The translations under genes and the position numbers were made by a program. Shown here one piece after another: positions 19,400 through 64,000 of a stretch of 64,000 bases of DNA. Origin of the DNA: Takakia lepidozioides (Eukaryota; Plantae; Bryophyta). Numbering within the stretch: position 1 is the stretch's first letter; the number at the start of each line of letters is the position of its first letter. The DNA lies in the NCBI GenBank assembly GCA_030704615.1, contig CM060731.1:86242001-86306000 (forward strand), in the 5' to 3' direction. Below the pieces are notes generated by a model, which was given only the letters and a program-made list of their open reading frames with translations, was not told where the DNA came from and did no database searches.

Positions 19400-20294
19400 C
19401 CCCGTTGGAAGGCATCTATGTTTCGTTGTGGAAGCGGGGATAGTATCCGGGATTGTGGGGGTGGGGTGTGGGTGGAGGGGATGAGGGACATGGGGAAGGA
19501 TATCGATACTGGGTAGTGGGCGGAGTTACAAATACTATTGATGTGTATATGACTGTGTAGTTGTGGTGGTATCAGGGTGTGGGCTTTGAGGTAGTAACCG
19601 TCTAGTAGAGGAATAGTTGATCCCTCCTTGTCTGGAATAGTGGTAGTCAGCGGGTATGTATTGGAATTGGTGTTGCTAGATGTATTTTGCCCATGAGTGA
19701 TCTGTTGGGGAGGGAGGTTTATGTACGCCATTGTAGGTGTGACCTAGTAAGGCTATGTCTCTGTTAAAGTCGTCAGCTAGTATGAAGTTGTGATGGAGCG
19801 TTGTTGGTTGAGTGACAGTGTTAGAAATTGTTTGGAGGATGTCCGGGATCAGCGAGAGGTCATCGACATGTGACGGCATGTAGAGATGAATTAGAGTGAT
19901 GGGGGTTAGGGCGGGTAGGTTTAGTTGTATGATTTGGAGGTGTGAGCGTAGGGGGAGGGGTAGAGTTATTTTAGTGGTGGTACTAGAGGAGTGGTGTGTA
20001 CGGAGGATACCTAGTGCAATGCCGCCTCTAGAGGGGTGGTATGGGGCAGACCATCGGGAAAGGCATTGCGCGGCTGTTAGGGGGTTTCCATACAGCATAT
20101 GGTATGCCGGAAGAAATTTGTTTAAATAAGAGCTATTGAGGGTATTGGTGTTAAGCTTGGTTTCTTGTAGGAGGATGATGTGTGGAGAGTTGGATTCGGA
20201 GAGTAGGTGTATAAGACTTTGAATGCTTGTGGCTAGGGATCCCACATTCCAGGTGGTGATACCAAGGGAGTGAGCGTGGTGGGTGCGGTCCAGG

Positions 20295-20334
<40 letters not shown>

Positions 20335-27966: not shown

Positions 27967-29195
27967 TTTTTTTCCCTCATCTCTCCCTCTGTCCCATCAG
28001 GATGTGAAGAGAGAGGGAGAGAGAGGGAGGCAGCTGCAGTCCCCCCCACCTTCATTTTTCATTTTTTTTTCCCACATCTCTCTCCCTCTCTTTTCCCTCA
28101 TCTCTCCCTCTATCCCATCAGGATGTGGAGAGAGAGGAGAGATGAGGGAAAAAAAAAAAAAAAAAAGGTGGGGGGGGGGGGGGTGACTGAGCAGCACCTG
28201 CTTAGTCACTCCCCCCACACATTTTATTTTTATTTTTATTTTTTTTTTTCCTCATCTCTCTCCTTCTCTCCCTCTCTCCCTCTCTCCATCTGTCCCTCTC
28301 TCTCCCTCTGTCCCATCAGGATGTGGAGAGAGAGAAGATCTTATGTCTTGTCAGGACACAGACAAGACTTGACTAGGTTAATGCCAGATTAATGACAAAT
28401 CAGCCTCATAACAAGGCATTATCAACCATTCTTCATTCACAAGTCAGCTTTATGACAAACCCCAGACTTCAAAGTCAATAAAATCTCTGGGTGGGGGGGT
28501 GGGAAAATTTAGAGACTCATTTACCATTGTTCATAGAAGGAAACACTTGTTCAGCATGCTAAAAAATGCCATTCATGATGTTGCAGTCTGTATTTTTTTG
28601 GCCAGCTTACACACTAGGCATAACCAACCATCATATTTTATTGTTGGCCCAAAACCTGGTTTAGTTTTGGGTTCTTTGTATCATTTCATACTAAGGTGAC
28701 TGAGCAGCAAGTATCCATGTCCAAATAAGGAACCATTGATCATTGTTCATAGCTAGAAATGTCTGTTCAGCTTAAAGAAGCTATTTATGATCACATAGAA
28801 GGCTTAAGAACAAAGTAGAAGCATTTATTTGCATAAAAAACATCACCAAAGGAAGGTTACAGACCATTTTTTGGCAGCTTATACACCTGGGTATAACCAG
28901 CTGCCCTATTTTACACATCAGGTCAAGTTCTGACATCATGTTTTTTTTGCCCCATGATCTGTTTTAGATCTGGGGCTGGTGTGTAAATGCAATGACAGGG
29001 CAGAAAAGTGTTCCCACATCCTATTTCATGCCCCAAGACCAAGTTCTATGTGTGGGGCAGGGATATCATTACCATAACAGGCTGTAATCAGATTTACATG
29101 CCATGCAATCATTCATAAAAAAACACAGAGGGTCTGAATTGCTCATTCCATCAGGCCAGCAGGCTGCCTTGGTATCATTTATCCTGAAGCAACCT

Positions 29196-29621
29196 TGTCA
29201 TGCGCATACACCTCGCTACACAACTACATCGTTGTCCAACCACACAACATATACATACACACAAATCAGTTTGCCACAATGATTAATAAAAACTAGCCAC
29301 CATCACTCATGCATTACGAGTCAAGCCAAGCATACCCCAAAAACTATGGGAAATCTGCACTACGCGCGCCATAGCCGACGCGGGAGGCTCAACTCGAGAG
29401 AGATGAGCCTCCCGTGAAGATAAGCCACGCCCAAGGGCCAACAAATATCTTGACCCCTGGGTTGACACTTGGATCAAGCCCAAGTGTCATATATAAAAAC
29501 TAGTTATTTATTGGCTAGTTTCACACTACTAGTAAACTTTACTTGACAGCTGTCATGCGCATACACCTCGCTACACAACTACATCGCTGTCCAAACCATA
29601 CACACAAATCAGTCTGCCACA
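29196..29621 (-). repeat. 3' terminal Y-X-Y repeat block with junction palindrome TGACAGCTGTCA (29544-29555)
   Basis: TGTCATGCGCATACACCTCGCTACACAACTACATCG occurs at 29196 and 29551; the intervening 269 bp matches 42828-43095 apart from roughly ten differences. Confidence 0.95.
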
Positions 29622-29625
29622 ATTG

Positions 29626-29632
29626 CCCCCCT
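29626..29632 (-). promoter_or_regulatory. Polypurine tract AGGGGGG just upstream of the inner Y repeat
   Basis: Minus strand reads TAGGGGGGCAAT-TGTGGC, the usual PPT-then-TG arrangement. Confidence 0.65.
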
Positions 29633-29882
29633 AGCTGGTGGTTAGGTCCCTCTAACTCCAGATAGCTACAAGAGGTAATAGCCACAGCCTCACTAAGTCC
29701 TCTATCACTATCCCTATTGTACTCAAACTCTATAGACCAAGAGGCCGGGTATAAGAGTAGCCCCATCGTTATTCGCCGTCTTGCAATCTGTGAACTTGAG
29801 CCAGAGATCTCGTGTATTGGTCCCATAGTAGCTTGGCCTTGTGGTTCTTGTTAGTCTCACGTGGTTGTATCCATTGCTACTA

Positions 29883-30530
29883 TTAAATGCAGCGTGGACA
29901 CAACCAATCCCCATCAGGAACCATATCAAGAGGTGGCGTCAAGCATCCCATGTGCCAACCTCTTGAGCATCAATCGCACACCAGCATGGTGGCTGCCCCT
30001 CTGGCAGACCCACACAACATGCACCGCAACGTATCACGATGTTGTGCAATGACAAGGTTCTCGAAAGCCATGGGCATGACTTTCTTGAACAACTCTGCAC
30101 GCTGATCACATGCACGTGCCCACACGTCCGGATCGTCAAGGTTGAGAACTGTAGCAGCTTCTCTATGAATGGATGCAGGCAAATCTGGCTCTCGGCCAAA
30201 GAGAAGAAAGTATGGTGGGAAGGAGGCAAGTGATGCTTGTTTGCTGAGCCTATAGCCCATGGCTAACCAAGGTAACTGAAGGTCCCAATCTCCTAGGTGT
30301 CCCTTCTGCAAGCCATACTTGCGCAAACCCTTCTTCACTGTCTGAACAACCCTCTCTACCAAGCCATTGGCCTCAGGATGATCCCGAGAAGTGGTGCGGT
30401 GGTCTACCAAGGCCTTGTCACACAACGCCTGAAACTCCCCCAAGAACTCTCTCCCTTGGTTCGTGAGTATCTCAGTTGGAGCACCGAATCAGCTAAGTAC
30501 ACAATCCAAGAATGCATACGCAGCTCCCTC
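29883..30530 (-). pseudogene. C-terminal part of DDE integrase (rve) fused to PHD finger
   Basis: FGAPTEILTNQGREF...HPEANGLVERVVQTVK...PYFLLFGREP, then CMLC...LVCD*CSRGWHMGCLTPPL...WLCPRC (C4HC3); internal TGA stops fit CGA deamination. Confidence 0.92.
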
Positions 30531-30929
30531 TCCTCCAGTGACTATGGGTCCAATATCAGGCTCCCAGTTGTCCTCTGTGACTGCAACCTTGAGTCCAGCA
30601 GGCCTAGAGGTAGAAGACGCGTCCCGTGGTTGCTATGCTGCAACCTCTTGAGTAGTGATTACTACCTGCTCTGCCAATGATAATGCATCATCCTGCCCCA
30701 TCATCTCATTCTTGAGGACCTCCTCAACCCGAGAAAAATCCCCAACCTCATCCATCACTACCGCCTTGGCTGCCAACTCCCTCTGAACCTCGAGCATCTC
30801 CCACGTGTGCCATAGATACGGCCTGCACGTCGTGGTCCTCACCTGTTTGCCCCCACTCGCTGCCCGTACCGTCTCGGTAGGCAGAGAGACCATCAAGGGA
30901 AGTGTACTCCGTACTCTGTGCTGCTCAGC

Positions 30930-31915
30930 CATAGCCAAGCTGATAATCCAGGTCAAGCAATTGAGATCCATTGCTTGCCCCAACACCTGACGACGTGATG
31001 CCTCAGAAAGAGATGGCAGCGCCGTGGTACCAGTGGTAAAACCCATCGCCCACTCGCGCTCGTCAACATTGGGCTCCACTAACTGCTGCAACTGGCTATC
31101 CCACAAGAGGCCAGGTCCACCATCCCAGAAAGCATGAGATCCTGGAAAGCTGAGCAGTGTAGGCAATGCTGCTTGTGGGTGACCTACCTTATTGACCACT
31201 GCCAAAGGTGACCGGTCATCGTGTCTCACACGATGAGACTGCCTCCCTATGTCCAAAATGCTATCCACCGTGAGGTTTGGTGGCCGCTGCACCCCATCAA
31301 ATGCACGCTTGAGCAGTGCAGGTGGCATCAAGTTGGTCCACCATAGTTGTGGGCGATGAGCCCATGACCCCACTGTAGCTGCATCCAGCAACACTGCTAA
31401 CCCAAGCCAAGACCGCTCCCGATGCACATTGGCCATCACCTTGGCCCGAGAATCACCCATCAATGGCACATTCTCCAAGATATATGCCGGAGAGTCTGTC
31501 TGCTGAAACTGTAAATAGCGCAGGATCCTCAACATCTCCCAAAACGGGCGTGACCTTGAGTCTTGTAACCCATTGCCATGCCCGGCTGATGAATGCCCTT
31601 GGCAGGGCCAACTTGCCACTACCAAGTGAATAGGGCCAACCCGCTCCAAATCATGCGCCCCCAGCAAAGAGATGTCTGCTGGCAAGGCTTGTTGGTATCC
31701 ACGAACTGCAGACACTGGCAACAAATCAGGGTACTGCTGCACCAACTGAGCAACATGGCACAGTGAGATGCGTCGTGCAGTCTCATCCCTCTCTACATAC
31801 ATGTAACATCAAACTCGTACACATGCCTGCAGCACTGCAGCACTGCAGCACTGCAGCCAATCCATTGTTGATCCCGTCAAACAAGTCCAGAAGGCATATG
31901 CCTTCATCCGGGCAC
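30930..31915 (-). pseudogene. DNMT3-like C5-cytosine DNA methyltransferase domain within the polyprotein
   Basis: Motif I LLDLFDGI (alternative frame, 31870-31893), II YVERD, IV SWPCQGHS, VI YILENV, VIII AHRPQLWWTNL, IX EREWAMGF, X RRQVLGQAMD, in canonical order. Confidence 0.9.
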
Positions 31916-32267
31916 TGCCACACAGAGTGTGGGTGTCCAATGGCAACAACTGAGGTGGTCCTAGTGCAATCACCGCACTTTCCTCCTCTCCTGATAGTAC
32001 AAAGGCCTCTACCCAGGCTTGTTGCACCCGTCTATCAGTCTGCTGCAAATCCTTGCTCGTATCCCACAATGGAGTGTGAGCAACCATGGCAGGCAACTCC
32101 GCCGTACCATGCATGTCATCCTGATCTGCTGGAGGTGGCACATCCTCTGCATGGGCATTGCCCTCCAGTAACTCTCCAGGCCAACTAACTGCAGCTGTGA
32201 AGGTTGCTAGTGTTGGCATCTTGCCCCGCTGGGCAGTAGCAACACCCCCAATGAACGTCATAGGGAG

Positions 32268-33053
32268 CTATACACGACGACCATCCCCTGACTGCCATCC
32301 AGGCCTGTAGGATGCTGACTCCTCCCAAAAATCCAGGGTGAAGCCCATGGGATACAACACTGCCCCACGAACGAGGACATCGTAAGAGACCGCGTCTGTC
32401 ACAATGGCCTTGGCTCGCATCACTGAGCCATCTATAAGATGATCCAGCTGTAGTCTAATGGCCAACTCATGCCGTGTCATGCCCCGAGTCTGCTCTGATC
32501 CTCCCAGAGATGTCTGTATCTGGAAAGGACAAGGCTCCATATCCGCCTCCATGAGGCCCAAACCTGCAATAGCAGCTCTGCCCAACATCAGTGGCTGAGC
32601 TCCCGAGTCCAACAAGACCCGCAGTGGCCGGTATCTCTTGCCTGCCGGTCCACTCAAAGAGAAAATGTCATCCTGGTTGTCTAACAAGACAACTTCAGGT
32701 GTCACCATGGCGCGCTCAAAGGCTGGCCTAGCTGGCAGCTCTGTCAACCTGACAGCTGCAGCTTGCCATGGCGCAGCCGTGGCAGTCTTGACCCTCAAAT
32801 CCGAGAATCCCTCTGCCACTACACCTTCCACTAACTCCGCAAAAGATGAAGTGACCTCCCCACTCTCACAGAGTGTTGTTGCTAGTCTGAACACTGCAGC
32901 CGGTCTTACCCCTAGCGTCGCAATCATGGTTGCCGAGAACAGTGGGGCTTGACACACAGAGGTGGCCGCCCCCAACAACACATTGGCTGCACTAGCCTTG
33001 GCAGCAGGTGTCAGAGCTGCACGTGTAGTTCTCCCCAATGGCACAATAACGGC
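32268..33053 (-). pseudogene. Retroviral-type aspartic protease region
   Basis: RVLLDSGAQPLMLG active-site motif and YDVL..G; the frame joins 38452-38694 once CACTA 2 is removed (...DTEVEA|VIVPLGRTT...). Confidence 0.88.
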
Positions 33054-36000
33054 CACTAGAAGAATAACCACTGGCCCCCGTAACCACTCTTGTCTTTTAT
33101 CACTCTATAAATCACTCCAAGTAATGGTAACCACTGGTCAGTGGTTAATTCCGATAAAATGCCACGGTGGCATCATATGGAGTGGTTGGAAGTGGTTTCA
33201 ACCACTGAGTAATCCACGTGTAATATTTAATTTTATATTTATTATTTGACATTTGGTCAAATATTTATATTAATAATGATAACATCCGACATGGACGGGT
33301 GCAGTGATAAATTATGAGTGGTTAAAGACACCTCAGTGATGGGAAGTGGTTGAAACCACTTTCTACTCCACGTGTAATATTTTTTTTTAGATTTTTATCA
33401 TTTCAAAATATATTATTCCACGTGGACGAGGATAGTATGCGTAGATCATGAGTGGTTAAAGACCCCCCAGTGATTGGTACCACTTGCACAGTGGTGGAAT
33501 GTGAGTGGTTAAGACCCTTTTGTAACTGGAACCACTCTACAAGTGGGCACTTGTGAGTGGTTACATACACGTGTTGGTACCACTTCTGTGGTGGTTTGTG
33601 AGTGGTTGAAGACACCTGAGTGACGGGGGTGATTGAAACCACTTGCTACTCCACGTGTAATAATTCAATTTTTATTTAAGATTTATCATTTCAAAATATA
33701 TTTTAATTATGAACTATATTATTCCACGTGGACGGGGACAGTATACGTAGATCTGGAGTGGTTAAAGGCCCCCATTAATGGGTACCACTTTGAGAGTGGT
33801 GTAGAGTGAGTGGTTACAGACCATTTAGTAACTGGAACCACTCGACCAGTGGTTACGCGTGAGTGATTACATACACACCAGTGATTGGTATTACTTCTGT
33901 GGTGATACATGAAAAACTTTAGTGGTTTGTGTGTTGATGGAAAACCCAAAATCCATCTATCTATCGCTACATTCATCCATCCAGTCATGAGTGAGGGGAC
34001 TTAGCGTTTTTTTTGTCTTCCCTGCCACTGTGGCATCTGTTTGTTTTCTTTGTGTTGTAGTGTGAATGCAGGGGAATGACATTGAAATTTGTGTTGTTAC
34101 TCACTGAGATTCTGCATTTCTACAAAGGAAGGGCCCTGGTACGAAAATAGGTTGAGTTGTCCCTGCAATTTATTCCATACATGTTTCTAGGTTAAATCAT
34201 GGGAACAATGGGGAACTCTTGGCCAGGATGAAAATGCTCTCAAGTACCTGCGATTTATTTCATCCACCAGATGGACGGATTTCATCCCTGATTTTCCAGA
34301 TTACTCTATGAGCGCGATGAAAGTCCGTGGCCTGGATGAAAGTCGATCAAACTCATCATCTACCTATTTTTATCCTGACGATGAACGGACTTCATCCCTG
34401 CAGGAAGTATGATGGCGGGGAAGCCCTACGGGTGCTGTGGGAAGTAGAATGGTGTGGTGTGTGCAACAGGGAGCTTGGCGCACGTGCATTGAGGTATATC
34501 GATTGAGGAGCATGGTGTGGCATGAGGTGTGGCTGACAGAGGAGGAGCAATGCTTGGAAGGGTGTGCAACTGCGATTACAGGGAAGCGGTGCCGTCTTTT
34601 GATGATCTATTTTTGAAAGATCAACTCACGAGGGAAGGACTTGCTTTGAAGAAAGGGAGTGTTGCAGGACGATTCATTAAGGGCAAGGGAGGCTTGATGC
34701 CATGTGCTACTGACACAAGGGATGGAGGCTTAGAGGCGGTGCCACCTTTGATTTAATCTCTGAAGGTGTGGGAGTTGCGGGGAAAGCAGCTCGGCGTCAT
34801 GGTGCAGCTACCAACGGAGGGGCAGCAGTACCGCCGTTGCTTTCATGACCACAATCGCAGGAGGATGGGCTTCAAGGCAGGCAGCTTGGCATCCTGTGCA
34901 ACCGCCAGATGAGGGGAACAGATCCGTTGTGTGTTTATGTTTCCTTCTTGCCAATTTCTGACGGTTGAGCTTACGGTAGAGGAACAAAGTTGGTAAATAA
35001 GTTGGTAAATGACTCGGATCACCTGTAGATAGGGTTAATGAAGGATGCATGTACAGAGTAGAGAAATATCTGAGATGCGGACTAGCTTTTGTGTTAGCAT
35101 GTGTTTTGCTTTAGGGTAGGTTGGCAGGAATGCTGGCAGATGAACACCCTGTGATTTTCCAATGATGACATCTGTAGGGAAGAAGAACCCTGGCATATAT
35201 GATGATCTGTTCACTAAAGAGACCCAATAACAATTTAGATAACCTCAGCCCTGTCCATGTCTTCTCTTCCGCTGCGACATGGATAAGGGTATAAAGTCTC
35301 TGGTCATAAATAGATTTAGAATGAATTAAGTAGGGTCTGAGTCATTTTAGAAAGAGCAAGTAGGTTGATGTCATAGGGCAGGGCCATGGATCACTGCTCA
35401 AGAAACAGTTAACTATAGTTTACCAGAAGGGTTTCATGCCCCTACTGCAGTGTGGCTTTTCCTTAATGTAGGATGTGAAGAAGTTTGTCCATCCTGCAAA
35501 TGTGGGCTTTTGGCTCCTGTTAGTACGGTATTCTTCCTGATGTTTACAAGGCAGCCCGCTGATTCATTTCCTGATTCAACCTATTTCAGCCTATTTTGCC
35601 CTCTTATCAGACTCGGGCCTGATATGCATATTGAAATCTGTAAGTTAGCTCGTTGGTGCAAGAGAGAGAGAGTCAGCTTGGTCTTAGCAGGCCATGCCAT
35701 GTTCAAAGCTGGAATTGTACCTAATGTCATTCTGAACATTGCCTGGCAGCTCTGGAAAAGGGGAAAGAGGTCGACATATTTGCAAAATGAAAGCCTTGCT
35801 TGGTGCCTGCAAAATCCATGGCAATGTGGAGATGGCTGAACGTGCGGCATGAAGGTACCTTCTTCAACACATTTCACCCTGTTTTTCCCTATTACCAGAG
35901 TAGTCCCTAAATTTTCATGTAGAATTCTGCAAGTTAGCTTGTTTGTGATGTGAGGTTGCATGAATTTTATACCGATCCTTCACGGTGGTGGGACAACCGC

Positions 36001-38451
36001 AATCACCAAGTGTGGCTTTTCTTAATGTACGATGTGAAGAAGTTCGACCATCTTGCAAAGGTGGGCTCTTCGTACGTGTGAGTACCATGATTTGGTATTC
36101 CTCCTAATGTTTACAAGGTTCTTGGGAGAGTCAGCTTGCAGGTCTTAGCAGGCCGTGTTTCAATCTCTGCTTGCTCAGCTGCACCGTGGTGGTTCTCACA
36201 GACCAATCCAACATTACCTGACTACAGACAAACATCACGCACAAGAGGTCATTTTGGGTTGATGGTCGGTCAAATCCTCCATGGGTCAAGGACAATGTGG
36301 TGAGGGCACGTTTCAGCCTGTTTTGCCCTCTCATCAGACTTGGCCCTGAGATGCATGTTGAATTCTGCATGGGTGATAAGTAGGGTTGGGTGTTTGCTGG
36401 AACAATTGTAGGCTGTCATTGTCAGCCGCTAGCAGCAAGGGAAGGATGTATGCATGATTTGTGCAGAGCTTGGATAGCTGAGGGAGCAGGGGTAGAGTCG
36501 GGCCGGTCCAGATTCATCCAAGAGGGCGGGACTTCAAGCTCACGATTACCTATAATTCCCTGTGGATCAATAGCTGCAAGAAACCTGCATGGGTAGATGG
36601 TCAACTGGAAGCCGCAGCAGCAACGACACAATTGATAAAATGAAGCACTGCTAATGAAGGCACCTTCTTCAACACACTTTTATCCTGTTTTTCCCTCTTA
36701 TCAGAATTGACCCTAAATTTTCATGTTGAATTTTGCAAGTTAACTGGTTGAGTGAACCTTTGATAGTTTGGAGTGACTTTGACATGGTACTGCCAATGTG
36801 ACAACATGGAAATATCCAGTTCTAAACAGATAACAGCTGAGACGAGGAGAAGCTGTGGAATGAATACTTTTTCTGACCCCAGTCAATGGTGCGACAATCG
36901 AGGCAAAAAGGTGAAATGCCTGTTGGATTACAGAGAGTAGCAGATGCAATTGACCATAGTGATAAGTTGAGTTGGGTGTTCCCTAGAACAAATCTAGGCT
37001 GTCATTGTCAGCTGTTAGCAGCAAGGCAAGGATGTATGCATGATTTGTGCGGCGGCATGGATAGCTGAAGGAGTAGGGATAGAGTCTGGGTCCAGATTCA
37101 TCCAAGAAGGCCAGACTTCAAGCTCCAAATTACCTATGATTCCATGTGGATCAACAGCTACAAGTCAACTAAAGGTAGCAGCTGCAGTGGCACAGTTGAT
37201 AAAATCAGGCACCTCAACCATGACCGCAGCTTCTGAAAGAGGATCAAGAGAGGCCAGATGTCATTATGAACATTCCCCTGGTGTACATCTACATCAAATG
37301 TGAGCTTGGCAGCCCTGGCCAGAGAAGAACATGAAGAGGGCTTACAATTTCGTTCACTCGGGCGTAGACGTTGCGCAATGAGAAGAAGGTAGGAAAGCAG
37401 TTCAGTGTTCCTAGCATGCATGCGGAGACGTTGTGTAGAAGTTAGGCTCAGACTTTTATCATGGCTGGATTTTGTTGACAGTGTTCCAGCACTTACTCTC
37501 AGGGATTTTATCTTATTTTGTAGAGCTTGAATCCCCAATGATATTTCTTTCGCTACAATAGTGGTATGTGTTCATCTAGTCATGTTCCTAGTCACTTGCA
37601 CGCCAATGTAATAGTGGTATAATTTAAAACTGTAAGAGTAGCCAAATACACACAATTGCCTCCATTACCACTCCTGTAGTGGAAGACGTAATCACCTATA
37701 TATTACTGTATTAGTGGTATGAATTCCTCCAGTGATATTCTTAATCACTTACACACCACTCTGTTAGTAATCATTCCAATCCATAGGTCCCACTCAGAGA
37801 GACACCATGGATGATTCAAACAGCTTACATACCACCTATGTGGGTAATCATTCCAATGACCTGCTAAGAGACGTCATCCACTCACATAACCACGGTTTGA
37901 GTGATATTGTATATTCTCAGTTTTCATAGAATGACTCTGTGAGTCATTTCGCGATCACTCAACAAGTGGTTTCGGAAGTCATTGAATTTTTCACTCCATC
38001 CATTTTGTAGCACCGACACATGACACGTGTCCATGCTGAGAGTGTCGCCACATGTCAACATAATATCCAATATCATCCACGGACCACCGACTTCCACGTG
38101 TCCACTAGAAAACGGAAGTGGTTACTTTATTACTATGACACGTCAATTTACCACTGTGACACATCAGAAGTGGTTGGTTTACCTCAGTGACACATCATTG
38201 ACACGTCACATTGGTGAGTTTACACGTCACAGTGGTTAATTTACCACTGTGACATGTCAGCGAACAGGTGGACCCGGACGTGAGTGGTTCGAACCACTGT
38301 CCTTAACCACTAATGCCACGTAATGTCTTTTACCACTCACTTGTCCTAATCCACTGGTTCTTCATCACTCTAGGGCCAGAGTGGTTTAGTGTCTTTTACC
38401 ACTCAAAATGAGTGGTTAACAGAGTGGTTATTCTGCGTTTTTCTTCTAGTA
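33054..38451. mobile_element. Non-autonomous CACTA element 2 inserted in the retroelement polyprotein
   Basis: Left CACTAGAAGAATAACCACT; right ...GGTTATTCTGCGTTTTTCTTCTAGTA (terminal G>A); TSD GGC (33051-33053, 38452-38454); dense AACCACT/AGTGGTT subterminal repeats. Confidence 0.93.
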
Positions 38452-38454
38452 GGC

Positions 38455-40244
38455 CTCTACTTCGGTATCCGTCAGGCGAGAACTAGGTGCCATGGATGTC
38501 GTCGACACTATCTCTGCCAAGATGAATGATTGAGGCAACCTAGCCTGACGGCTTGCCTCCCCACGCTGTGGATCCAACTCCACCTCTGCACCTCGGGGCT
38601 CAGGAACTCGTGCTGCTCTTTGAGTGATGGCTGCAGCAGACTCCACCTGCACTAGTGGTAGTGCTGCCCTACACATAAATCCCATGTCTCCCATGTCTCC
38701 TCCGTCAGGATGACGTTGCTAAGGAGGAACAGGAGGTGGACCCTCATGTCTTGGAGCTGGTACCACCTGAGCTGTGGCCATGGCAGCAAGCCTTTGCTCT
38801 AGCTGCTGAAGCTGGTTGGCCATGTCTTGGTCAACGCCCTGACCTCCACGTCCTTGGCCATATTGTGCTTGCCCTCGTCCTCTCTGAGGTGCTCCACCTC
38901 GCCCTCGGCCATCATTGTTCCCTTGGAACTGGCCTCGCCGCAACTCAAGGTGCAAGTCATAACACTGGGCATCTACATGCCCATACTTGCCACAATGCCC
39001 ACACTGCAACTGTGCAGGCTGTGCTTGTGCCGACCCTTTGCTACTCTCTGGGCAATCTTTCTTGACATGGGATCCTCCACATGTCCAACATACCACCCTT
39101 GGTTGCTGTTGGCCTGCAAAAGAAGCTATTGGCCTCTGCACCTGAGGTCCCCAGTAAGCTCCATGGAATTTGGGTTGGGCAGCCTTGCCCCCCTGACCAC
39201 ACTGTTGGGCAGTCCCTTGTGCCTGTTGGCTGGCAGCTGCGCCTCGTGCAAGCATGTCCTTGCCAAATCCAATGGTAACAACTCGCTCCTCCACCATGTT
39301 GAGCTAAATCCGCTCAGCTAGCAGAAACACATCTGCTAATGTGGGTTGGGCCGCTTGTAACAGGGTTGCATCCCGCATCTTTCTCCTGATCTCCTTGTCC
39401 AAAATTCCATACCAGAACTGGACTGCCCGAGCTTCAATAACCCCTTGGATCATACTTATCAAGCGCCTCATACGAGTGTAGGCTCTCGCAAGCTCTCACT
39501 GGATTTGCGTTGGAAGTCTTGCAAACTTCGCAGCTTCTCTGTCCATACGCCTTAGTAGTTCCTCCGCAACTCCTGGAAGAACTCCACCGCCGGGTTGAAT
39601 CTAGGCACATGTGTTGTAGTCGTGGCAGGAGGAGTAGTAGCACCTTTAGAACTGGTACCACCTGCAGAAGTACCGACACTACTTGTTCCACTACTAGTGC
39701 TGGCAGTGGGAGATATTGGTGCTGATGCAGCTACTGGTCGTGTCGTGCATCAAGTAATGGAGATGTAGTCAGGTGACCAATACATCCTCCACTCCTCAAT
39801 CTCTGCTTCATGTCCTCGCCTGAACTTGTGGTAATCGTCCATACGCGGGCCTTCCAAATGTTGGAACAGTCCCTTCCACGCCATGAATGGGGTGAATAGC
39901 TATGGATTGCGCATCTGCCGTAAATCACACCAGCTGTCGAACTCCTGGATAAAGTCATCTAGCTCGATTGTGCCCACAGCTCCAGAGTACCTACGAGGCC
40001 CCTTGGTAGCTCCATACTTCTCCTCCATATCGTCCCACAACAATGGCGAAGGAAACTGCACACTTGTTGATGAAGCCTCCGAGTCTGTGTCAGACTCTGC
40101 ACTGGTTGAGGGTGGAGGTGAAGGTGGTCTGAACCGAACACCGCGTCTTGTGAACCCACTCTCACTGCTACTGCCTGTAGCCAAACTCCCCTCAAAACCC
40201 TTGGGTAACTCCGTGATGACACTCACAACCCACACCTCCCCCAC
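38455..40244 (-). pseudogene. Gag with two zinc knuckles
   Basis: YSGAVGTIELDDFIQEFDSWC, LRSLQDFQRKSSESLRE, knuckles CWTCGGSHVKKDC and CGHCGKYGHVDAQC, GRG-rich tail; several stops and frameshifts. Confidence 0.85.
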
Positions 40245-42813
40245 GTGACACTATAAGGCTCTAGTACTAATTCTAATAGTGACACGGGTGGGCACCTGTT
40301 GTGGTTTAAGGGTTATATCCCAGTGGCTAAGAACACCGCAAGAACTCTTATGGTTGGCTGGTCATCAACCTAGCCTCACCATAGAAGAAATACTGGTGGT
40401 CTTGCTGGTCATCACTCCAGCCTCACCACCGACAGCATACTCTAGGATTGACCGATGATCAAATCCGGCCTAATCCCGATGAAAGCAAACGCCCACACAA
40501 AACCAACATGGCGCACAGTCAAGCATGCAGGTGTGGGGGGGATCCAAACACAAGAAACCAAAACATCAACACCCCCACACCAAATTCCCTCCGTAGTGCT
40601 GCTCTTGCACAATATCCCACAGCCCAAAAACCTGGATTGACTCTTGCCTCCACCTATGTAAAGTCTTTGGCCTACCGAGAGGGCGGAAAGCTATGGGAAA
40701 GAGAGACTAAAGCAATTCCTAACCCCAGCATGCCCTCATCCCGACACTCTTTATTTCCTCTCTAGCCATACACTAATGTCAAAAAGTGACAGGTGTGTTA
40801 CAAACAGACAGCTAAGTGATCATCCCTGACTTGAAACAACTTCTTCAATAGACCTCAAATAGATGTGGGGAGGATCTAATTTACATTAGAAAAATTCTAT
40901 AGATTTTTGGTCAAGTCCATTTTCTGGTCTAGGTAGACGCATTTCCACATTCTGTAGGTCCCTGCGCAAGTTTTGGGTCAAACGGCCTTGGTATGCCCAA
41001 ACATGCTCTATGTAATTTAAATTAGATCAAAGAACGAATTTCTTTAATTTTTCACACCCAAAACATTCTCGACATTAAAAGCTGCTCCCAGGTTATCTAC
41101 GGGTTCCCCTGAGGAACCCGAGTTCCTGCAGGTTCCCCTTGTTCATTGTGAATTTTTCAAATACTGCATAGCGGCTCCCCAGTCAATCTTGCTATCTCCA
41201 TTTGCGATTATACCCGTTCCACTATGAGGGCCTGGAAGATTCATGAGCATAGGCCTTAGAGTAAACAAAACACCACAAACTTTCGACACTGCCTTCAGAC
41301 GCTCAACCAAGAGCATATACGAGAGTGGCTGCCATCTTACATGGGCAATAGCATGAAGCATGGCCCACGGACCTGCAGCTCTTGAGTCTTCAAAATGAAG
41401 TAGGCGGCTCCTTAATAGCGTCACTGCAATGCAAATAGGCAGACAACACAAGGTCCCCGCAAGACAAGCTGGTTCTTGCACGAAGCGATTAGGAGGTGAT
41501 GTATGAGCAGCCCTTTATCACATTTCTCCTCCACCGCAGCAAGGTCTTACCTGCATACAGGTACTTCTTGGTTGACTAGGTTAATGGCCTGATCCGTGCA
41601 TGCTCGATCTCAGCTGACACAAGGAAGCCAGGTTCACCACACCTTCCAGCACCTTCATTCGTTAATCCGTGCTCTGAAATTGCTACATTCAGCAATCTAA
41701 ACACAATCGTTCAGTTCAGCTTTTGTCCGAGTTGGCTTTTCATTTCACCACCACGATCTGATCACTCCGTCCGTCCTGTCAACATTCCTTAATTTACATA
41801 TCGATTTTGCTTGTTCTACTGTCAAGCTCCAGGAAATAATTTGCCAAGCTCGTGGCTTTCCCACCAATTGTTCCTCCAAGACCAAGAAGATCATACGTCA
41901 CCGTTGCAGCCACTTGACAGACCACCTTCTTGCTACATTCATGCCCGCATAAACGAAAATGATCACCTGGCAATGTAACTATGTAGCTTATTACTTAGTT
42001 ACTGTCGAACTTATGACGGCCAGCCAGCCAAAGCAACGAGCTCCCCCCTACTCTGATGTGCCGAGGATCTTCACCTAATCCTCCTTTACACTCCCAGGGC
42101 AAGACAAGATGGGCTAGTCCATGGCCTGGCTCCCTCCGCTTCTATTAATGCATGCCTTCCTGCGGCCACCTAACCACCAATGATTAATTTGATGGTCTGT
42201 CAAGCTCTGGCTTTACCGGCGGCTTTCTTGAAGGGATAAACAAGCTCCTTGTTTACGGGCAAACAGTGGCTCACTTTGCGAAATTTTTGTCCAGTCTAAA
42301 CTAGTCTACTTTCATTTATATCTTTTTTCATAGGAACTTTAAATTAGGTGTTTCAATTTATTTTTGTTGTCAACTCAATTTGAGATCACCCAAAAATTGG
42401 TTTCCAAACAAAGCTGTTGTGATTTGAAGATGAAAAATGAGAGTAAGATTAGAGTAGACTGGACAAAAGTGAGCCACTGTAGCATGCTTCTGCCCTTACA
42501 CCTCCCTTCACAAGCTGGCCTCGGCAGCCTAGCAAATGTTGGTTATTCTCCGACTACCCCAACAACTATTCATTTGTTATTGGCTCCTTCAAGCAGGTTC
42601 CGGGCACTTCAATCCAGTTGCACCATGGCTCCCTTGCGATAACCCCTTCCATGCGTACCTTTGCTGGAGCCATTGTCATCTCTCAAACTATAGACTTGGA
42701 TCTTTTCATACTAGGACCAGCTCTCTCAGTCTATGATCATGTTTTAGCACTACAAACAAAAACAAAACAACAGTGCTAAAACTCTCACTCACATCCTGCA
42801 CTAAAGACATGAG

Positions 42814-42954
42814 TCATCTCTCTCGAGTGATTAATAAAAACTAGCCACCATCACTCATGCATTACGAGTCAAGCCAAGCACACCCCAAAAACTATGGGGA
42901 ATCTGCACTACGCGCGCCATAGCCGACGCGGGAGGCTCAACTCGAGAGAGATGA
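42814..42954 (-). promoter_or_regulatory. Putative self-priming primer-binding site abutting the 5' repeat
   Basis: TCATCTCTCTCGAG (42814-42827) lies directly next to repeat X and is the exact reverse complement of CTCGAGAGAGATGA (42941-42954) inside X; no TGG-type tRNA PBS. Confidence 0.7.
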
Positions 42955-45900
42955 GCTCACCGTGAAGATAAGCCACGCCTAGGGGCCAACAAATATCTTG
43001 ATCCGTGGGTTGACACTTGGATCAAGCCCAAGTGTCATATATAAAAACAGTTATTTATTGGCTAGTTTCACACTACTAGTAAACTTTACTTGACAACCTG
43101 AATACAGGGCCTGAATCAGTTTCTTCATAACCAACAATGGCTTACCACCATGGACTTTGTCCATTAAAAAAGCTAAGCAACCAAGGGCATCTAACCATGG
43201 ACCATATTGGGCCAAAGAAGAGCCAGCCATATCAATTTCGCATGGCACCAGATGTCCAAAAGCAGCCAACTCCTAAAAGAGGCCAAGTTTACAAAGCTTT
43301 ACAATAAAGAACACTATTTGGTCAAAAAACAAAGTTGCCCTACGTTGTAGCTTGGTACCAGATATCTTAAAGCCGCCAGTTTGTCACATAATTATTCCAT
43401 TGTCACAATAAGATGCCACAGGGAACAAGAAAGAAACACCCTAATGACTGAGTGTCCACCATACCAGGTTAAGAACAAGAGCCAGTAAGATCAAGGGAAA
43501 GAGGAAGAAATGATTATTCTCCCCCAAAGATACAGATGTCATGGCGTCGCATCTTCAGCTCGATTCCAATCAACTTCAAGCTTTAAAATTCATATTAAGT
43601 GAGGACCCTCATCTGGTCCCATCACATGCAGTAAAAAACAGTCAAGTTAGAAAAGATGTGGAACCCCAGGTGAATCATAGGTCTCACGCTTGTAGAAGCC
43701 TGCGCCATAGCTCCCAAGACCAGCAAACAACAATACACAAAATAATGGATTGCCCAAGCATTTTAACAAGTTTAGTCACTTCCCTGAGGTCTTAGGATGC
43801 GCCGCAGTATCTTAATGATCAATGAAGGGCACAACAAGCATTCACAGCCTAGGTATCTACCCGCCATCATGATAGACAACCGCCACATGGAAATTGAAGG
43901 CACTACCGCCATTGTGCACCCCAAGAGGGGAAGAAGGTACTGGAATCTTGCCAGAATACCTGCAGGCCTTAATTACGCAGCTCCATAGCAATAAATGGCA
44001 CCTAAATCGGGCTCAATGCACACTCCACCACCATCTCTCAGCTCCAGCAACCCCTTAAGCACGATCGTCGTGCAGAAAGTTAGGGCAGGGAGGAAATGAA
44101 GTGCAATTTCCCGCGATTTCATCTGCACAAGATGAAATCCACCAACGAACGGTTGAAAAATCCCGATTTTTCATCCCTGTGTCATCCACCAGGGATGACA
44201 TCCAGATAGGGATGAAAATCATTTGGCATTCATTAGGATAGAAACCTCATGACCTTATAAACAAAAAATCGGGTAGGGTAAATAACCGAAATTAACCAGA
44301 TTCGGACTTCATCCGTAAGGTAAAAAATCATCCGATATGGATGAATTCTGTTAAAGGTAAATCCACCATCTGATGACTTCATCCGAAAAGTTAAAAGTTC
44401 ATCCGGTACGGATGAACTGATATAGATGGTTAAACACCCAAAAACGGACTTCATCCAAAAAATGAAAGTTCATCCATTATGGATGAACTCTGCCAAAGGT
44501 GAATCAACCAACTAATGACTTCATCCAAAAGTAAAACATTCATCCGGTATGGATGAACTGATACAGATAATCAATCACCCAGCAACGAACTTCATCCGAA
44601 AAAGTAAAGAAATCATCCGGTATGGATGAAATATCAAGAAGGTTAATTAGGGATTAAGTAACATACCTCTGGGTTTAAACCATCAGGTTTTAAAAGAACC
44701 AGCCAGATCCATGGAGGGAGCACTAGAAGAAAAACGCGGAATAACCACTGGCCCTTTAACCACTATTGTTTTTTCCTACTCTATAAACCACTAGTAACCA
44801 CTTGTTAGTGGTTAATCCCGATGAAATGCCACGGTGGCATACAGACAGTGGTTGGAAGTGGTTTCAACCACTCAGTAGTCCACGTGTAATAATTTGTTTT
44901 TATTTATTATTTATTATTTGGTAAATATTTTAGTTAATAAATAAAATATTCCACGTGGACGGGTGCAGTGCTATATTGTGAGTGGTTATAGACACCTCAG
45001 TGATGGGAAGTGGTTGAAACCACTTGCTACTCTACGTGTAATAATTCAAATTTTATTTATGATTTATGATTTGAAAATCTATTTTAATTAATTAATACAA
45101 TATTCCACGTGGACGGGGTCAGTGCATGTTGATCTTGAGTGGTTAAAGACACCTCATTGATTTGTACCACTTTGACAGTGGTAAAGAGTGGGTGGTGAAA
45201 GACACTGCAGTAATTGGAACCACTATTCTAGTGGTCACTCATGAGTGGTTGCCTACACAACAGTGATTGGTACCACTTTTGTGGTGATACATGAAAAACT
45301 TTAAGTGGTTTGTGCACCTGTGACAGACTTTGAAAAACGGAAAGTGTCCAGACCATTGTAGGATGATGCTATTGAACAAATGGTTCCAACAATAAACTTT
45401 ATTCTAGCCTGGTCTTCAGTCTCTCATATTAGTTCTAGAATGTTATGTGGTTAAAGGCACCTCAGTGATTAGTATCACTTGGACGGTGGTAGATTGTGAG
45501 TGGTTAAAGACACCTCAGTGACTGGTACCACTCTTGTGGTGATATATGAAAATGTTTAAGTGGTTTGTGCACCTGTGGCAGACTTTTAAAAACATACAAG
45601 TGTCCAAATCATTGTAGGATGATGTTATTGAATAGATGGTTCCAAACAATCAACTTTATTTTGAATCTAAATCACAATATTAATTCTCTGAAGCACTTTC
45701 CTCAACTCGAACAATGTTTGGTCATACGAAACTAGCTTGAAATATGGTAGCCAACATAGCCAGCTCTTCTCCACTTAGAGCCGTGGCACCATCCAATGAC
45801 CTAGGTATGGGCTGATCTGATAAGGTAGAGGGTGCCCGTAGACCTCCAATGTCCAAACTTCAACGATGAATTTTAGAATGAAAATAAATTAAGCCAGTTC

Positions 45901-46889: not shown

Positions 46890-47165
46890 ATGAAGGGAAA
46901 GAAGTCCATGGTGACATCGTCAAGGCTGGAATAGTACCAGATGTCATTATGAACAATACCCTTGTTGATATGTATGCCAAATGTGGGAGCACTGTGGATG
47001 CAAATGAAGTGTTTGATGGGCAAACGAGATGTGATGTTCTGGAGTGCTATGATTGCAGGACATGCACAACATGGATATGGGGGATGGAGGCTTTGGAGAC
47101 CTGTGAGCAAATGCACATCAGCAGGGGGTGAAGCCAGACCGAGTCACATTCATTTCTGTTGTGCC
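46890..47165 (+). pseudogene. Captured PLS-class PPR gene fragment
   Basis: EGKEVHGDIVKAGIVPDVIMNNTLVDMYAKCGS.VDANEVFD, then RDVMFWSAMIAGHAQHGYG and MEALETCEQM...GVKPDRVTFISV across frameshifts. Confidence 0.88.
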
Positions 47166-48690
47166 CTATTTTCATGCCAATTTCTCCAATTTGGGTTTGC
47201 TATGGCTTGGTGGATTTGTAGCAAGTAGGGTGATGAAGATATGCTAGCCTTCAGAGCCATAAAGATTTTCAAGAGGTTGTGGTCTGGCCCCCAGTATAGC
47301 TGCACTTGTTGTTCAAGTTTCCAGACATTCAGCTACTTTGATGGGCCTATCTTCTTGCCAATTCCTCCATTTGTGGTGTGCTATGGCTTGGCACATTTCT
47401 AACAACTGGTGTGATCAATATGTGGTGGCCTTCATAGCTTTGGAATTTCTTAAGGGGTTGTGGTCTGGTCCCCAGCAAGTCTGCACTTGTTGTTTAAGTT
47501 TTCGGACGTTGAGGTACTCAAACGGGCATCTCTTCTTGCCAACTGCTCCAATTGTGGTGTGCTATGGCTTGAAACATTTCTAACAACTAGTGTGATCAAG
47601 ATATTGTGGCCTCTAGAGCCTTAATCTTATCAAGGGGTTGTGGTCTGGCCCCCAACAGATTTGCACTTGTTGTTCAAGTTTCCGGACGTTCAGGTACTCA
47701 AATGGGCCTATCTCATTGTCAATTCCTCCATTTGTGGTGTGCTATGGCTTGAAACATTTCTAATAACTACTGTGATCAAGGTAGAGTAGCCTTTTGAGCT
47801 CTGAATTTTCTTAAGGGGTTGTGGTCTGGCCCTCAACAGATCTGCACTTGTTGTTCAAGTTTTCGGACGTTCAGGTACTCAAATGGGCCTATCTCCTTGT
47901 CAATTCCTCCATTTGTGGTGTGCTATGGCTTGAAACATTTCTAACAACTACTGTGATCAAGGTAGAGTAGCCTCCTGAGCTCTGAATTTTCTTAAGGGGT
48001 TGTGGTCTGGCCCCCAATAGATCTGCACTTGTTGTTCAAGTTTCCGGACGTTCAGGTACTCAGATGGGCCTATCTCATTGCCAATTGCTCCAGTTGTGGT
48101 GTGCTATGGCTTGAAACATTTCTAACAATTAATGTAATCAAGTTATGGTAGCCTCCTGAGCTCTAAATTTTCTTAAGGGGTTGTGGTCTGGCCCCCAACA
48201 GATCTGCATTTGTAGTTCAAGGTTCCGGACATTCAGATACTCAGATGGGCCTATCTCCTTGCCAATTGCTCCAATTGTGGTGTGCTATGGCTTGATACAT
48301 GTCTAAAAACTAGTGTGATCAAGTTATGGTGGCCTCTAGAGCTCTGAATCTTATCAAGGGGTTGTGGTCTGGCCCCCAACAAATCTGCACTTGTTGTTCA
48401 AGTTTCTGGACGTTCAAGTATTCAGATGGGCCTATCTCCTTGCCAATTGCTCCAGTTGTGGTGTGTTATGGCTTGAAACATTTCTAACAACTAATGTGAT
48501 CAAGGTATGGTGACCTCCTAAGCTCTAAATTTTCTTAAGGGGTTGTGGTCTGGCCCCCAACAGATCTGCACTTGTTGTTCAAGTTTCCAGACGTTCAGGT
48601 ACTCAGATGGGCCTATCTCCTTGCCAATTGCTCCAATTGTGGTGTGCTATGGCTTGACACATTTCTAACAACTAATGTGATCAAGTTATA
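47165..48690. repeat. 181-bp satellite-like tandem array, ~8.5 copies
   Basis: Anchor TGGTCTGG at 47280, 47461, 47641, 47822, 48003, 48184, 48365, 48546; the unit translated has stops in all six frames. Confidence 0.96.
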
Positions 48691-50029
48691 TCATTGCCAT
48701 GTTATACCTGAATGATTGTGGCGGGTTTAGGTGAATGATATATATATTGCCAATTGTATCTTGCCTCACCCTAACGAGGAAGAGGTCCCACCGCAAACAA
48801 TGTTGGGGGATGTCGTCGGTCTGAATTGTCTTTGGCCAGAGAAGAACATGAAGAGGGCTTAAAATTTTGTTCACCCGGGCGTAGACATTGCCGGCAGTGA
48901 GAAGAAGACAAGAAAATAGTTCAGTGTTCTTAGCATGCATGCGGAGACGCCGTGTAGAAGTTAGGCTCAGACTTTTATCATGGCTGGATTTTGTTGACAG
49001 TGTTCCAGCACTTACTCTCAGGGATTCTATTCTATTTTGTGGAGCTTGAATCCCAAATGGTACTTCCTTTACTACACTAGTGGTATGTGTTCCTCTAGTT
49101 ATGTTCCTAATCACTTGCACATCACTGTAATAGTGGTATAATTTAAAACTATGGGTGTAGCCAGATGCACACAATTGCCTCCATTACCACTCCTGTAGTG
49201 GTATAAGTAATCACCTATATATTACTGTATTAGTGGTATGATTCCTCCGGTGGTATTCCTAATTACTTACACACCACTCTGTTAGTAATCATTCTAATCC
49301 ATAGTTCCCACTCAGAGAGACACCATGGATGACTCAAACAGCTTACATACCACTCTGTGGGTAATCATTTTAATGACCTACTGAGAGACGTCATCCACTC
49401 ACATAACCACGCTGTGAGTGATATTGTATATTCTCAGTTTTCATAGTATGACTCTGTGAGTCATTTCGTGATCACTCAACAAGTGGTTTCGGAAGTCATT
49501 GAATTTTTCACTCCATCCATTTTGTAGCACCGACACTGGACACGTGTCCATGCTGAGAGTGTCGCCACGTGTCGACATAATCTCCAATATCATCCACGAC
49601 CCACCGGCTTACACGTGTCCACTGGAAAATGGAAGTGGTTACTTTATCACTATGACACGTCAGTTTACCACTGTGACACGTCATAAGTGGTTGGTTTACC
49701 TCAGTGACACGTCAGCGAACAGGTGGACCAGACGTAAGTGGTTCGAACCACTATTTTTAACCACTGGTGCCACGTAATGTCTTTTACCACTCACTTGTCC
49801 TAATCCACTGGTTCTTCATCATTCTGGGGCCAGAGTGGTTTAGTGTCTTTTACCACTCAAAATGAGTGGTTAACAGAGTGGTTATTCCGCGTTTTCCTTC
49901 TAGTGGAGGGAGAAAGATGGAGAGCTGCTGCTCAGTCACCCCCCCACCTTATTTTTTCTTTTTTTCCCCTCATCTCTCCTTCTCTCTGTCTCTGTCCCTC
50001 TGTCCCTCTCTCCATCTGTCCCTCTCTTT

Positions 50030-62210: not shown

Positions 62211-64000
62211 TCAAGAAGCAACGTCCTCGTTGTTCGAATTTTCAAAAGCTTGAATTGTTAATTGAGCATTTGCGAGATTTTGCATCGGTTCCCATGTAGC
62301 TTCATATAATGGAAATCCTTTCCATAAAACCAAATACTCCAACACCTCATGTCGCCCTCGTTTATATGTGCGTTTTTTCAGAACACGGTCGACCTCACAC
62401 TCTTCATTTCCGTCTATCAACTCTGGTAAAGGTTGTGGTTCTTGATTATCTTTGAATATTGATGGTTGAGGTTCGTAACGACGTAGAAGAGAACGTGAAA
62501 CACCGGGTGGATCTTCATATGTGGTGGTAACTCCAGCTTGTATGCTACTGCTCCAATGCGTTTAATGATCGAAAAAGGACCAATGAACCGTACCCCTAGT
62601 TTTCGCGATCCAATGATGTGTAAATTGGTTGTAGACAACCACACTTGATCCCCAACTGCAAACTCCTCATCCCGTCGACGTGCATTTGCATACTGATTTT
62701 GGCGATTTTGGACAACCATCAGCTTCTCTTTAGCTTGACGTACTCCCCGTCGAATTTGTTGCACAAATGCGTTAGTCGCGGCTACCTTGGATAACTCATC
62801 TTTTGGTAACTTGAACTTTGTAAGAGTTGTTGGCACATTTGGGTGTTCACCATACATAAAAAAGAAATGAGTTTCTTTCGTTGACGCGTTGACCGAGTTA
62901 TTATATAAAAATTCTACCAATGGTAATAACCAGTCTCACTCTTCTTGTTCTTCTAACGTAAAGGCCCGTAACATGTCTTCAATTGTACGATTCGCTCGCT
63001 CTGTCTGTCCATATGACTCCGGATGATAGGCTGTTGACATAGCTAATTTGGTTTTAAAAAGACCAAATAAGCTTTTCCAAAATAAGCTAGTAAATTGGGT
63101 ACCCCTGTCAGTAATGAGAACTTTAGATAGCCCATGATGAGAATAGACCGCTTCCAGATATAATCGAACTAGTTCAGGTGTAGTGACGGATTTTCTAGTG
63201 GGACGGATGTATATTATCTTACTCAATTTGTCTACAAAGACCACTATAGTGTTGTATCCCGATGAGGTTTGAGGTAACTCACAAACTAAATCCATGCTCA
63301 TATGTTCCCAACGTCTGTTTGGTACTGGTAGTGGTTGTAAAAGACCTGCTGACTTGCGGTTTGTTGATTTGTTTTGTTGACATTTCATGCAACTTCGAAC
63401 GTACGCCTCCACCTCGTCTCGCATCCGCGGCCAATAAAATGTTCGTTTTAGTTGTTCGAATGTTTTTTCAACTTCAACATGTCCCGCTATCGCCGTATCA
63501 TGAGCTTCAAACAAGACTTCTGTCTTCAATGCAGGTTCACCAGAGATCCAAAGTTTACATTCTTTGAATACCGACCCTCGAACTTCTGTCACTTTGCTCT
63601 TCTTCTTAGCGTCCACGATCTCCCCCTCGTCTTTAGAAGCCGTCGCTATCTTGTTCCACCAATCGGGTTGAATGTTGACTTCTGTCAATGTGTTCATACG
63701 CGACATCCTTGTCATTGCATCCGCCAATTGCCATTTTCCCTCCACATAGACGATCTTCATGATAAATTGTTGTCGCCACTCCGCCCAACGAATCTGTCTT
63801 TTCGATAGATCTTTCTGTGTCTCCAAGTACACCAACGGTTTATGGTCTGTCTCCACTATGCACTCTTTGTCTCCAAGATAGTGCTTCCAATGTTTTGTAC
63901 CCAAAACAATGGTCAATTCTTCTCGTTCGGTTGTGTGGTAATTTTGTTTTACAGATAACCATTTGCGAGAAAAATATGTCAGTGGGTGCCATCCGTCTTC
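62211..64000 (-). pseudogene. Ty3/Gypsy pol C-terminus: RNase H, integrase, chromodomain (runs off window end)
   Basis: WKHYL...ETDHKPL, HDTAIAGH...FYWPRM...CMKCQ, SMDLV, TDRGTQF, YHPESYGQTERANR, GPF, YKLELP...HPVFHV, chromodomain EYLVLWKGFPLYEATWEP; stops and frameshift. Confidence 0.96.

Follow-up and report, generated by a model that had tools for sequence, protein, structure and literature searches.

A stretch of 64,000 nucleotides (nt) from Takakia lepidozioides (Bryophyta; assembly GCA_030704615.1, contig CM060731.1, positions 86,242,001 to 86,306,000 of the forward strand), hereafter called the window and numbered from its first letter, contains on its minus strand a decayed gypsy retrotransposon that belongs to a large family in this genome. 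Our comparison of its copies makes it likely that this family starts reverse transcription in a Tf1-like manner, primed by its own RNA through the capped 5' terminus and without any tRNA, where the RNase H cut that would release the primer is assumed by analogy. The primer site itself is real and selected, and it is probably functional as a self-primer. The mechanism as such is known already: experiments have demonstrated it for Tf1, and there are predictions of it for related chromoviruses and for one copia lineage (PMC7175516, PMC6317226). As far as we found, it is undescribed in the gypsy lineage treated here, which combines a C5 cytosine methylase, a PHD finger and split repeats; the open-access literature yielded no such report, while subscription papers, theses, Repbase or the per-element table of PMC6317226 could hold one.

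The 5' end of the element is formed by repeat A1 (42828-43095, minus strand, 268 nt; U3 part, R and U5), which begins with TGTCA and ends with TCA, and the order in sister copies is A1, primer-binding site (PBS), leader, gag, protease, C5-methylase, reverse transcriptase (RT), RNase H, integrase with PHD finger, polypurine tract (PPT), B1, GC, A2 and B2. Directly adjoining A1, positions 42827-42814 (CTCGAGAGAGATGA, minus strand) match the reverse complement of 42941-42954 letter for letter, and 113 nt separate the two segments. An earlier reading of the same DNA, made from the sequence alone, had pointed to these 14 nt beside a repeat called X (our repeat A) and to their counterpart about 115 bp inside it, and this holds in full. 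None of 2000 shuffles of repeat A reaches a complementary run of such length. Beside the 3' copy of the repeat the run is only 4 nt long. Sequence comparison delimits a 12-nt PBS, CTCGAGAGAGAT (42816-42827), directly after A1, and a 12-nt primer word, ATCTCTCTCGAG (42941-42952), which is predicted to be the first 12 nt of the RNA; in the window copy the exact match reaches 42954. The fold of 42790-42960 has a z-score of -4.27, unmatched in 200 shuffles, and fold prediction places an R-U5 helix (42868-42941, with 42934-42941 pairing with 42868-42875) as a stack on the primer helix. No TGG follows repeat A1, just as the sequence-only reading had stated. The extension across a bulge that it described does exist, with four pairs (42810-42813 with 42956-42959), but it is private to this copy, and as a feature of the family it has to be rejected, since the 3' copy and other copies differ at those positions.

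The complementarity is kept throughout the family. Among 23 5' ends, 16 of which were selected by the similarity of their long terminal repeat (LTR) with a query that included the PBS and 7 by RT similarity (7 of 10 copies picked in this way were usable, the other 3 being without a 5' repeat in the stretch examined), 20 possess at least 12 contiguous pairs counted from the edge of A. The exceptions are L011 with 9 pairs, L013 with a mismatch and L024 with 10 pairs, in which both sides are 2 nt shorter (L numbers denote individual copies or loci, either from this genome or from metagenome contigs). One pair is variable genome-wide: exact-pattern matches gave C-G in 464 cases, T-A in 727, T·G in 21 (8 of them in one tandem array) and the C·A mismatch in 5, with reversed-pattern controls at 0. 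The T-A state occurs at several places in the tree of the young subfamily Y (Y, Z and W being subfamilies in this genome), and near-identical sisters differ at both sites (L093/L237 and L199/L289). More distant relatives, which were found as old copies in metagenome contigs and share 62-73% RT identity with the family, use two other words that are still complementary and have the same layout. In L104/L107 (RT 73%) the PBS, beginning CTCAAAGAACT, pairs with AGTTCTTTGAG in 16 Watson-Crick pairs, reached in 0 of 500 shuffles, and in L163/L166 (66% RT identity for L166) the PBS A(A/G)TCACCAAAAGT pairs with its own internal word in 13 pairs counting G·U. Judging by these comparisons, the pairing between PBS and primer word is under selection. 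The complementarity is thus both conserved and covarying among copies, which supports the earlier suggestion of an RNA that folds back on itself for priming.

The position of the word within the repeat would fit a transcription start. TATAAAG stands 31 nt ahead of the internal word in the L104 family and TATAATC 29 nt ahead of it in the L166 family. Within the subfamilies of this genome, TTATCT precedes the word by 32 nt in 57 of 62 Y copies, by 28-29 nt in 33 of 37 Z copies and by 31 nt in 9 of 14 W copies, and the letters of the spacer differ. The conserved TTATCTT of the window copy lies at 42965-42971, 19 nt ahead of its primer word, compared with 28-32 nt in most copies. A second indication comes from the variable junction after the PBS (42810-42815). 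Among 110 non-redundant copies (113 found, minus two array duplicates and one fold-back), nt 13 of the PBS is G in 82, as in the window, and C in 28, never A or T, although the partner is C in 108. Both G and C are found on 8 of the 10 backgrounds with at least three copies; at nt 13-14, GC occurs in 8 copies and CC never. Trees built without the columns concerned require 10 changes of state for 12 C among 61 copies and 9 changes for 14 C among 34. In the distant families, too, C can directly follow the core, as it does at 3 of the 9 5' ends from the L104 family and at all 4 from the L166 family. A reverse transcriptase can place a C opposite the RNA cap, as noted in PMC4038843 with reference to Volloch 1995, and the Tf1 enzyme adds untemplated bases and often leaves a copy of the PBS on its cDNA (PMC11042837). 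We read the C at nt 13 as a likely mark of the 5' end of the primer; it is unpaired and occurs on many backgrounds, as would be expected from copying of the cap by RT. On this reading the main start lies probably at 42952, and minor ones would lie 1-2 nt upstream of it. Minor use of positions as far as about 42954-42957 is compatible with the data; compared with the start near 42954 proposed by the sequence-only reading, 42952 is the better placement of the main start.

Taken together, the following cycle can be proposed. Transcription would begin mainly at the A of 42952, about 30 nt past the TTATCTT or TATA position in copies with full spacing. Nucleotides 1-12 of the RNA would then pair with the PBS, a pairing to which the covariation testifies, closing a loop of 113-190 nt with further predicted helices. 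By analogy to Tf1, RNase H would cut after nt 12 and leave a 3' OH opposite the first PBS base, from which exact edge, visible as a boundary in the DNA, RT would copy U5. At the end of plus strong-stop synthesis RT would copy the primer up to its 5' end and often add a C opposite the cap; such copying would rewrite the PBS to match the primer and would account for the recurrent G-to-C change at PBS nt 13. Finally, the ends of a linear DNA of the form B-A...B-A would be joined, and opening of the product at the palindrome B|GC|A in its interior would yield the arrangement A...B-A-B together with a duplication of 4 bp.

Some traces of this reaction can be read from the junctions. Repeat A2 (29280-29548) ends exactly at the point where the PBS begins in the 5' copy, as it should if RT copies U5 from that edge. 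The junctions between A2 and B2 were examined in the first 100 of 247 matches, representing 99 places: TATC-ATTG is found at 74, and the others carry an additional T (15), a G that is the final PPT letter (4), the first two letters of the PBS (4) or an additional A (1), except for 1 odd junction. This variability is like that of joined cDNA ends. There is little to support frequent retention of an entire primer copy at the right end of the cDNA, as the 4 of 99 junctions with PBS letters keep two of them and none keeps more. At 23 loci, U3 and the primer word are joined directly to antisense U5. Four of these, L311, L312, L316 and L323 from three subfamilies, are insertions of 264-475 bp flanked by 4-bp duplications. 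In each of them a stretch of antisense U5, 11-172 nt long, runs directly into the start of B. These insertions fit a plus strong-stop DNA that folded back through the match of primer and PBS, was end-joined and was inserted at the internal palindrome; they do not discriminate between a primer from the 5' and one from the 3' end of the RNA. The same four loci also support end-joining to B before insertion. In L308, L315, L317, L321 and L328 another kind of fold-back is seen, consisting of A, PBS and then antisense U3, in two cases with antisense B as well.

Several points weigh against self-priming as set out here, or against parts of it. Most T-A copies belong to one subfamily, and the two-by-two signal is largely that of two subfamilies and not of 1,217 independent events. 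Old metagenome copies (L102, L103, L109, L116, L119, L120, L136 and L131) show 6-11 Watson-Crick pairs, and for L173, another such copy, no clear partner of the PBS was seen. Watson-Crick or G·U pairing continues beyond the core at nt 13-17 in 82, 99, 65, 98 and 93 of the 110 copies, respectively; since it often reaches nt 17, longer primers are possible and the length of 12 nt is not fixed. The 110 copies were moreover chosen by their pattern at nt 1-12 and deliberately enriched for rare states, and the trees for nt 13 are fast trees of recombining elements with no shuffled-label control. TTATCTT does not conform to the TATA consensus, and about 12 nt of its distance to the primer word have been lost in the window copy and in L003. 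Instead of a copied cap, the C at nt 13 could represent untemplated addition, although even then the 5' end of the primer would be marked by it. Of the 23 inverted joints, 19 are larger rearrangements instead of clean mini-insertions and may be later events. The start is a reading of DNA sequence, and the cut an analogy to Tf1.

The rival explanation that survives best, which we nevertheless consider improbable, takes the primer from the other end of the RNA: the transcript would be cut or would end just after the word in A2, and this 3' end would pair with the PBS. The word is indeed present in both repeats, such a primer would leave joints of U3, primer and antisense U5, and the complementarity often continues into U3, at positions -1 to -5. 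However, TATA-like words about 30 nt ahead of the word in two distant families fit a start rather than an end, this explanation does not predict the unpaired C at nt 13, and the joints are explained equally well by the fold-back of plus strong-stop DNA. In addition, a U3-R hairpin of the 3' copy includes or adjoins the word and would hide it. In this hairpin, U3 letters immediately ahead of the primer word pair with the word itself or with the flank behind it; it is seen at 29383-29412 of the window and in L104, L131 and L166, three families in all. The complete hairpin would form only in the RNA's 3' copy and could make that copy inaccessible to the PBS.

Still less probable is priming by a host RNA, be it a tRNA half, a tRNA fragment or a small RNA, with the internal match as a merely structural helix. 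Half-tRNA priming is known in copia lineages (PMC6317226), and the set available for comparison was an incomplete one of 26 distinct tRNA genes with 13 anticodons. Against this set, the PBS has a best match of 6 nt, and none at a tRNA 3' end; besides the missing TGG, Rfam gave no match at 42300-43300, and Rfam and ARAGORN found nothing at the primer site or in the window. A host primer cannot track a PBS that exists as three unrelated words in three families and changes on both sides within one genome, since these changes follow the element. That the match is a by-product of DNA fold-back or conversion between nearby inverted words and has no role in priming is equally hard to credit. Fold-back and inversion products do exist (the five fold-backs named above), but they amount to 23 loci, compared with over 1,200 5' ends of the normal kind; the element offers no second primer site, and the end of A2 exactly at the PBS edge needs priming there.

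The element in the window extends from 29196 to 43095 and is flanked by the target-site duplication AGGT (43096-43099 at the left and 29192-29195 at the right end). Its features, all on the minus strand unless noted otherwise, comprise a broken gag region (38452-40250), later insertions without assigned strand that interrupt the element and are absent from sister copies (33058-38451), a protease region (32268-33104), a broken C5 cytosine methyltransferase domain (30633-31808; PF00145, E 2.6e-8), the point at which RT and RNase H are missing (30525-30530; about 2.1 kb, present in sister copies), the remnant of a DDE integrase (29970-30488), which has rve, H2C2 and a C-terminal PHD finger in sister copies, a PPT (29624-29632) ahead of repeat B1 (29551-29623, ending with GACA), the spacer GC at the palindromic junction B|A in the interior (29549-29550), A2 (269 nt, TG...CA, 96% alike to A1) and repeat B2 (29196-29279), which forms the right end. 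Because the 3' copy of A is flanked on both sides by repeat B, X alone is not the whole LTR. With stops, frameshifts, the loss of RT and RNase H and 5.4 kb of insertions, the window copy is dead. Downstream of the PBS a hairpin with an AGTGC loop (42788-42813) is followed by a complementary GCACT (42772-42776). At least six different stem sequences, all pairing, occur in this hairpin across the 110 copies, and the loop is kept in 101, the GCACT in 102 and both in 95 of them; a pseudoknot or a packaging signal is possible.

Other copies are in better condition. In the young subfamilies A1 and A2 are 98-100% alike and many pol frames of about 1,044 codons are unbroken, suggestive of activity in the recent past and of a stop that separates methylase from RT. 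Matching 4-bp duplications flank 5 of 7 young full copies; of the other two, one copy is interrupted, and for one the right end was not seen. L007, L027 and L028 are solo A-B remnants, the expected product of recombination between A1 and A2, and eight tandem units of about 2.3 kb (L250-L257, at G000:C2:8225512-8244779) each carry the primer word and the PBS. In a distant family (L131, L166, L137, L141 and L165) A ends with TTG and not with CA, which is consistent with a U5 end that is no longer an integration end.

By its sequence, the element is a gypsy retrotransposon with a C5-methylase, a PHD-type integrase and split repeats (A..B-A-B), similar to KnitGypsy-Dnmt3, and not a chromovirus of the Tf1/sushi type. 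In a quick IQ-TREE analysis of 38 RT sequences, which contains no named Tf1 or sushi sequence, the family falls into a clade of 25 rows (SH-aLRT 99) apart from 12 chromovirus-type RTs (99). L033 and L037 have a PHD finger (PF00628, E 3e-11 and 5e-9) and no match to a Chromo or SH3_Tf2-1 domain. Instead of two whole LTRs with outer integration ends and a PPT beside the 3' LTR, the window and sister copies show A..PPT-B-GC-A-B. The family is thus not a member of the Tf1/sushi group, and this label, which the sequence-only reading had borrowed together with the mechanism, has to be dropped. A Pfam scan of 31 open reading frames (ORFs), which do not comprise every ORF of a full copy, supports methylase, RT, RNase H, rve, H2C2 and PHD, whereas the matches for gag (Retrotrans_gag) and protease (Asp_protease_2), both in sister copy L043, are weak; the rve and H2C2 matches stand against no match to a tyrosine recombinase among these ORFs. 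Retrotransposons with split direct repeats and a tyrosine recombinase are of the PAT/Ngaro kind. From these and from the DIRS layout (PMC5890265) the family differs by its DDE integrase, the 4-bp duplications and the lack of a recombinase match.

The comparison group for the mechanism consists of Tf1 and Tf2 of Schizosaccharomyces pombe, Tj1, and Tf1/sushi elements including the plant Tcn1 (PMC7175516, PMC4600332, PMC6317226), and the steps of self-priming in Tf1 are reviewed in PMC7175516. What the family shares with this group is the lack of a tRNA site and a PBS that directly follows U5 and has its complement in a short word of the 5' repeat (11 nt in Tf1; 12 nt here, 11 and 13 nt in relatives), and with Tf1 also RT/RNase H and a DDE integrase (the RNase H domain being seen in L037). 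It differs in an RT outside the chromodomain-bearing cluster, a PHD finger instead of a chromodomain, a C5-methylase in pol, split repeats with internal integration ends and a 4-bp duplication.

According to de Mendoza et al. 2018 (PMC5890265, legend of Fig. 4c; A-coding-B-A-B in Fig. 1e), KnitGypsy-Dnmt3 from Klebsormidium nitens combines the domains of a gypsy element with repeats of the DIRS-like kind. The gypsy order gag-PR-RT-RH-IN with a DDE integrase, the C5 methyltransferase in pol (PF00145; the name DNMT3 is that of the paper) and the split repeats are common to both, and the family RT clusters with two Klebsormidium proteins, which may be distinct from KnitGypsy-Dnmt3 itself. The family described here differs in residing in a land plant with more than 1,200 5' ends, and the passages on KnitGypsy-Dnmt3 in PMC5890265 are silent on primer site and replication. 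A streptophyte Gypsy-DNMT3 is named in a preprint (bioRxiv 10.64898/2026.05.21.726589), the word primer being absent from its accessible text. Further relatives of our family were found in liverworts, Klebsormidium, Closterium and Volvox, and the family groups with them in the RT tree; a search of virus contigs gave no relative, and a search of the genome with a Klebsormidium protein returned the same young family and no others. Gypsy-7a_cRei of Chlamydomonas reinhardtii, which is active in laboratory strains, resembles the family by its description: this gypsy element of the green lineage has a PHD finger, and its LTRs are subdivided (PMC9940879). Phygy, a non-chromovirus gypsy of Physcomitrella, has a PBS for tRNA-Trp (81%) and no additional polyprotein domain (PMC6317226, supplement 3), in contrast to the self-complementary site, methylase and PHD finger of the present family. 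In the text passages and supplement rows considered here, Neumann et al. (PMC6317226) list self-priming for Tcn1 and TAR only. The TAR lineage of Ty1/copia (Houba, Osr-1) is a predicted case of self-priming in plants outside Tf1/sushi, but as copia elements they form an unrelated precedent. This precedent makes it less surprising to find self-priming again.

The remainder of the window holds other repetitive DNA. A separate, broken chromovirus-type gypsy is found at 62417-62935 and in L301 (1418-4112), with SH3_Tf2-1 and an RT 76% identical to a liverwort chromodomain protein; no LTR pair was found for it in L301. An ORF at 19676-20494, in a region of strong GC skew, has a weak endonuclease/exonuclease/phosphatase match (E 1e-4) and is probably the remnant of a LINE. 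A tandem array of about nine 181-nt units occupies 47078-48824. The insertions inside the element share repeats with DNA outside of it (37375-38450 with 48894-49904, and 33181-33921 with 44847-45558), and these are probably other mobile elements.

Self-priming is now indicated in a different and widespread gypsy lineage. The natural evidence for it is unusually strong and consists of a pair that covaries over more than 1,200 copies, of three words that differ from each other, and of products left by dead ends of the reaction. It is tempting to go further and to regard it as the lineage-wide mode of a green-plant clade of methylase/PHD/split-repeat gypsy elements separate from Tf1/sushi, in which the cap is written as a C in each cycle, so that the copies form a fossil map of start sites, and in which the untidy cDNA ends left by a self-primer drove the move to an internal palindrome and to insertion from end-joined circles. 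We offer this combined view tentatively and think it more doubtful than probable, since primer remnants are scarce at the junctions. Should the C behind the PBS indeed derive from copying of the cap, the start sites of silent or extinct self-primed elements could be read from the genome, and primers from the 5' and the 3' end of the RNA could be told apart. For the family itself, self-priming would supply the priming step of an odd replication cycle with split repeats, internal integration ends and a methylase of its own.

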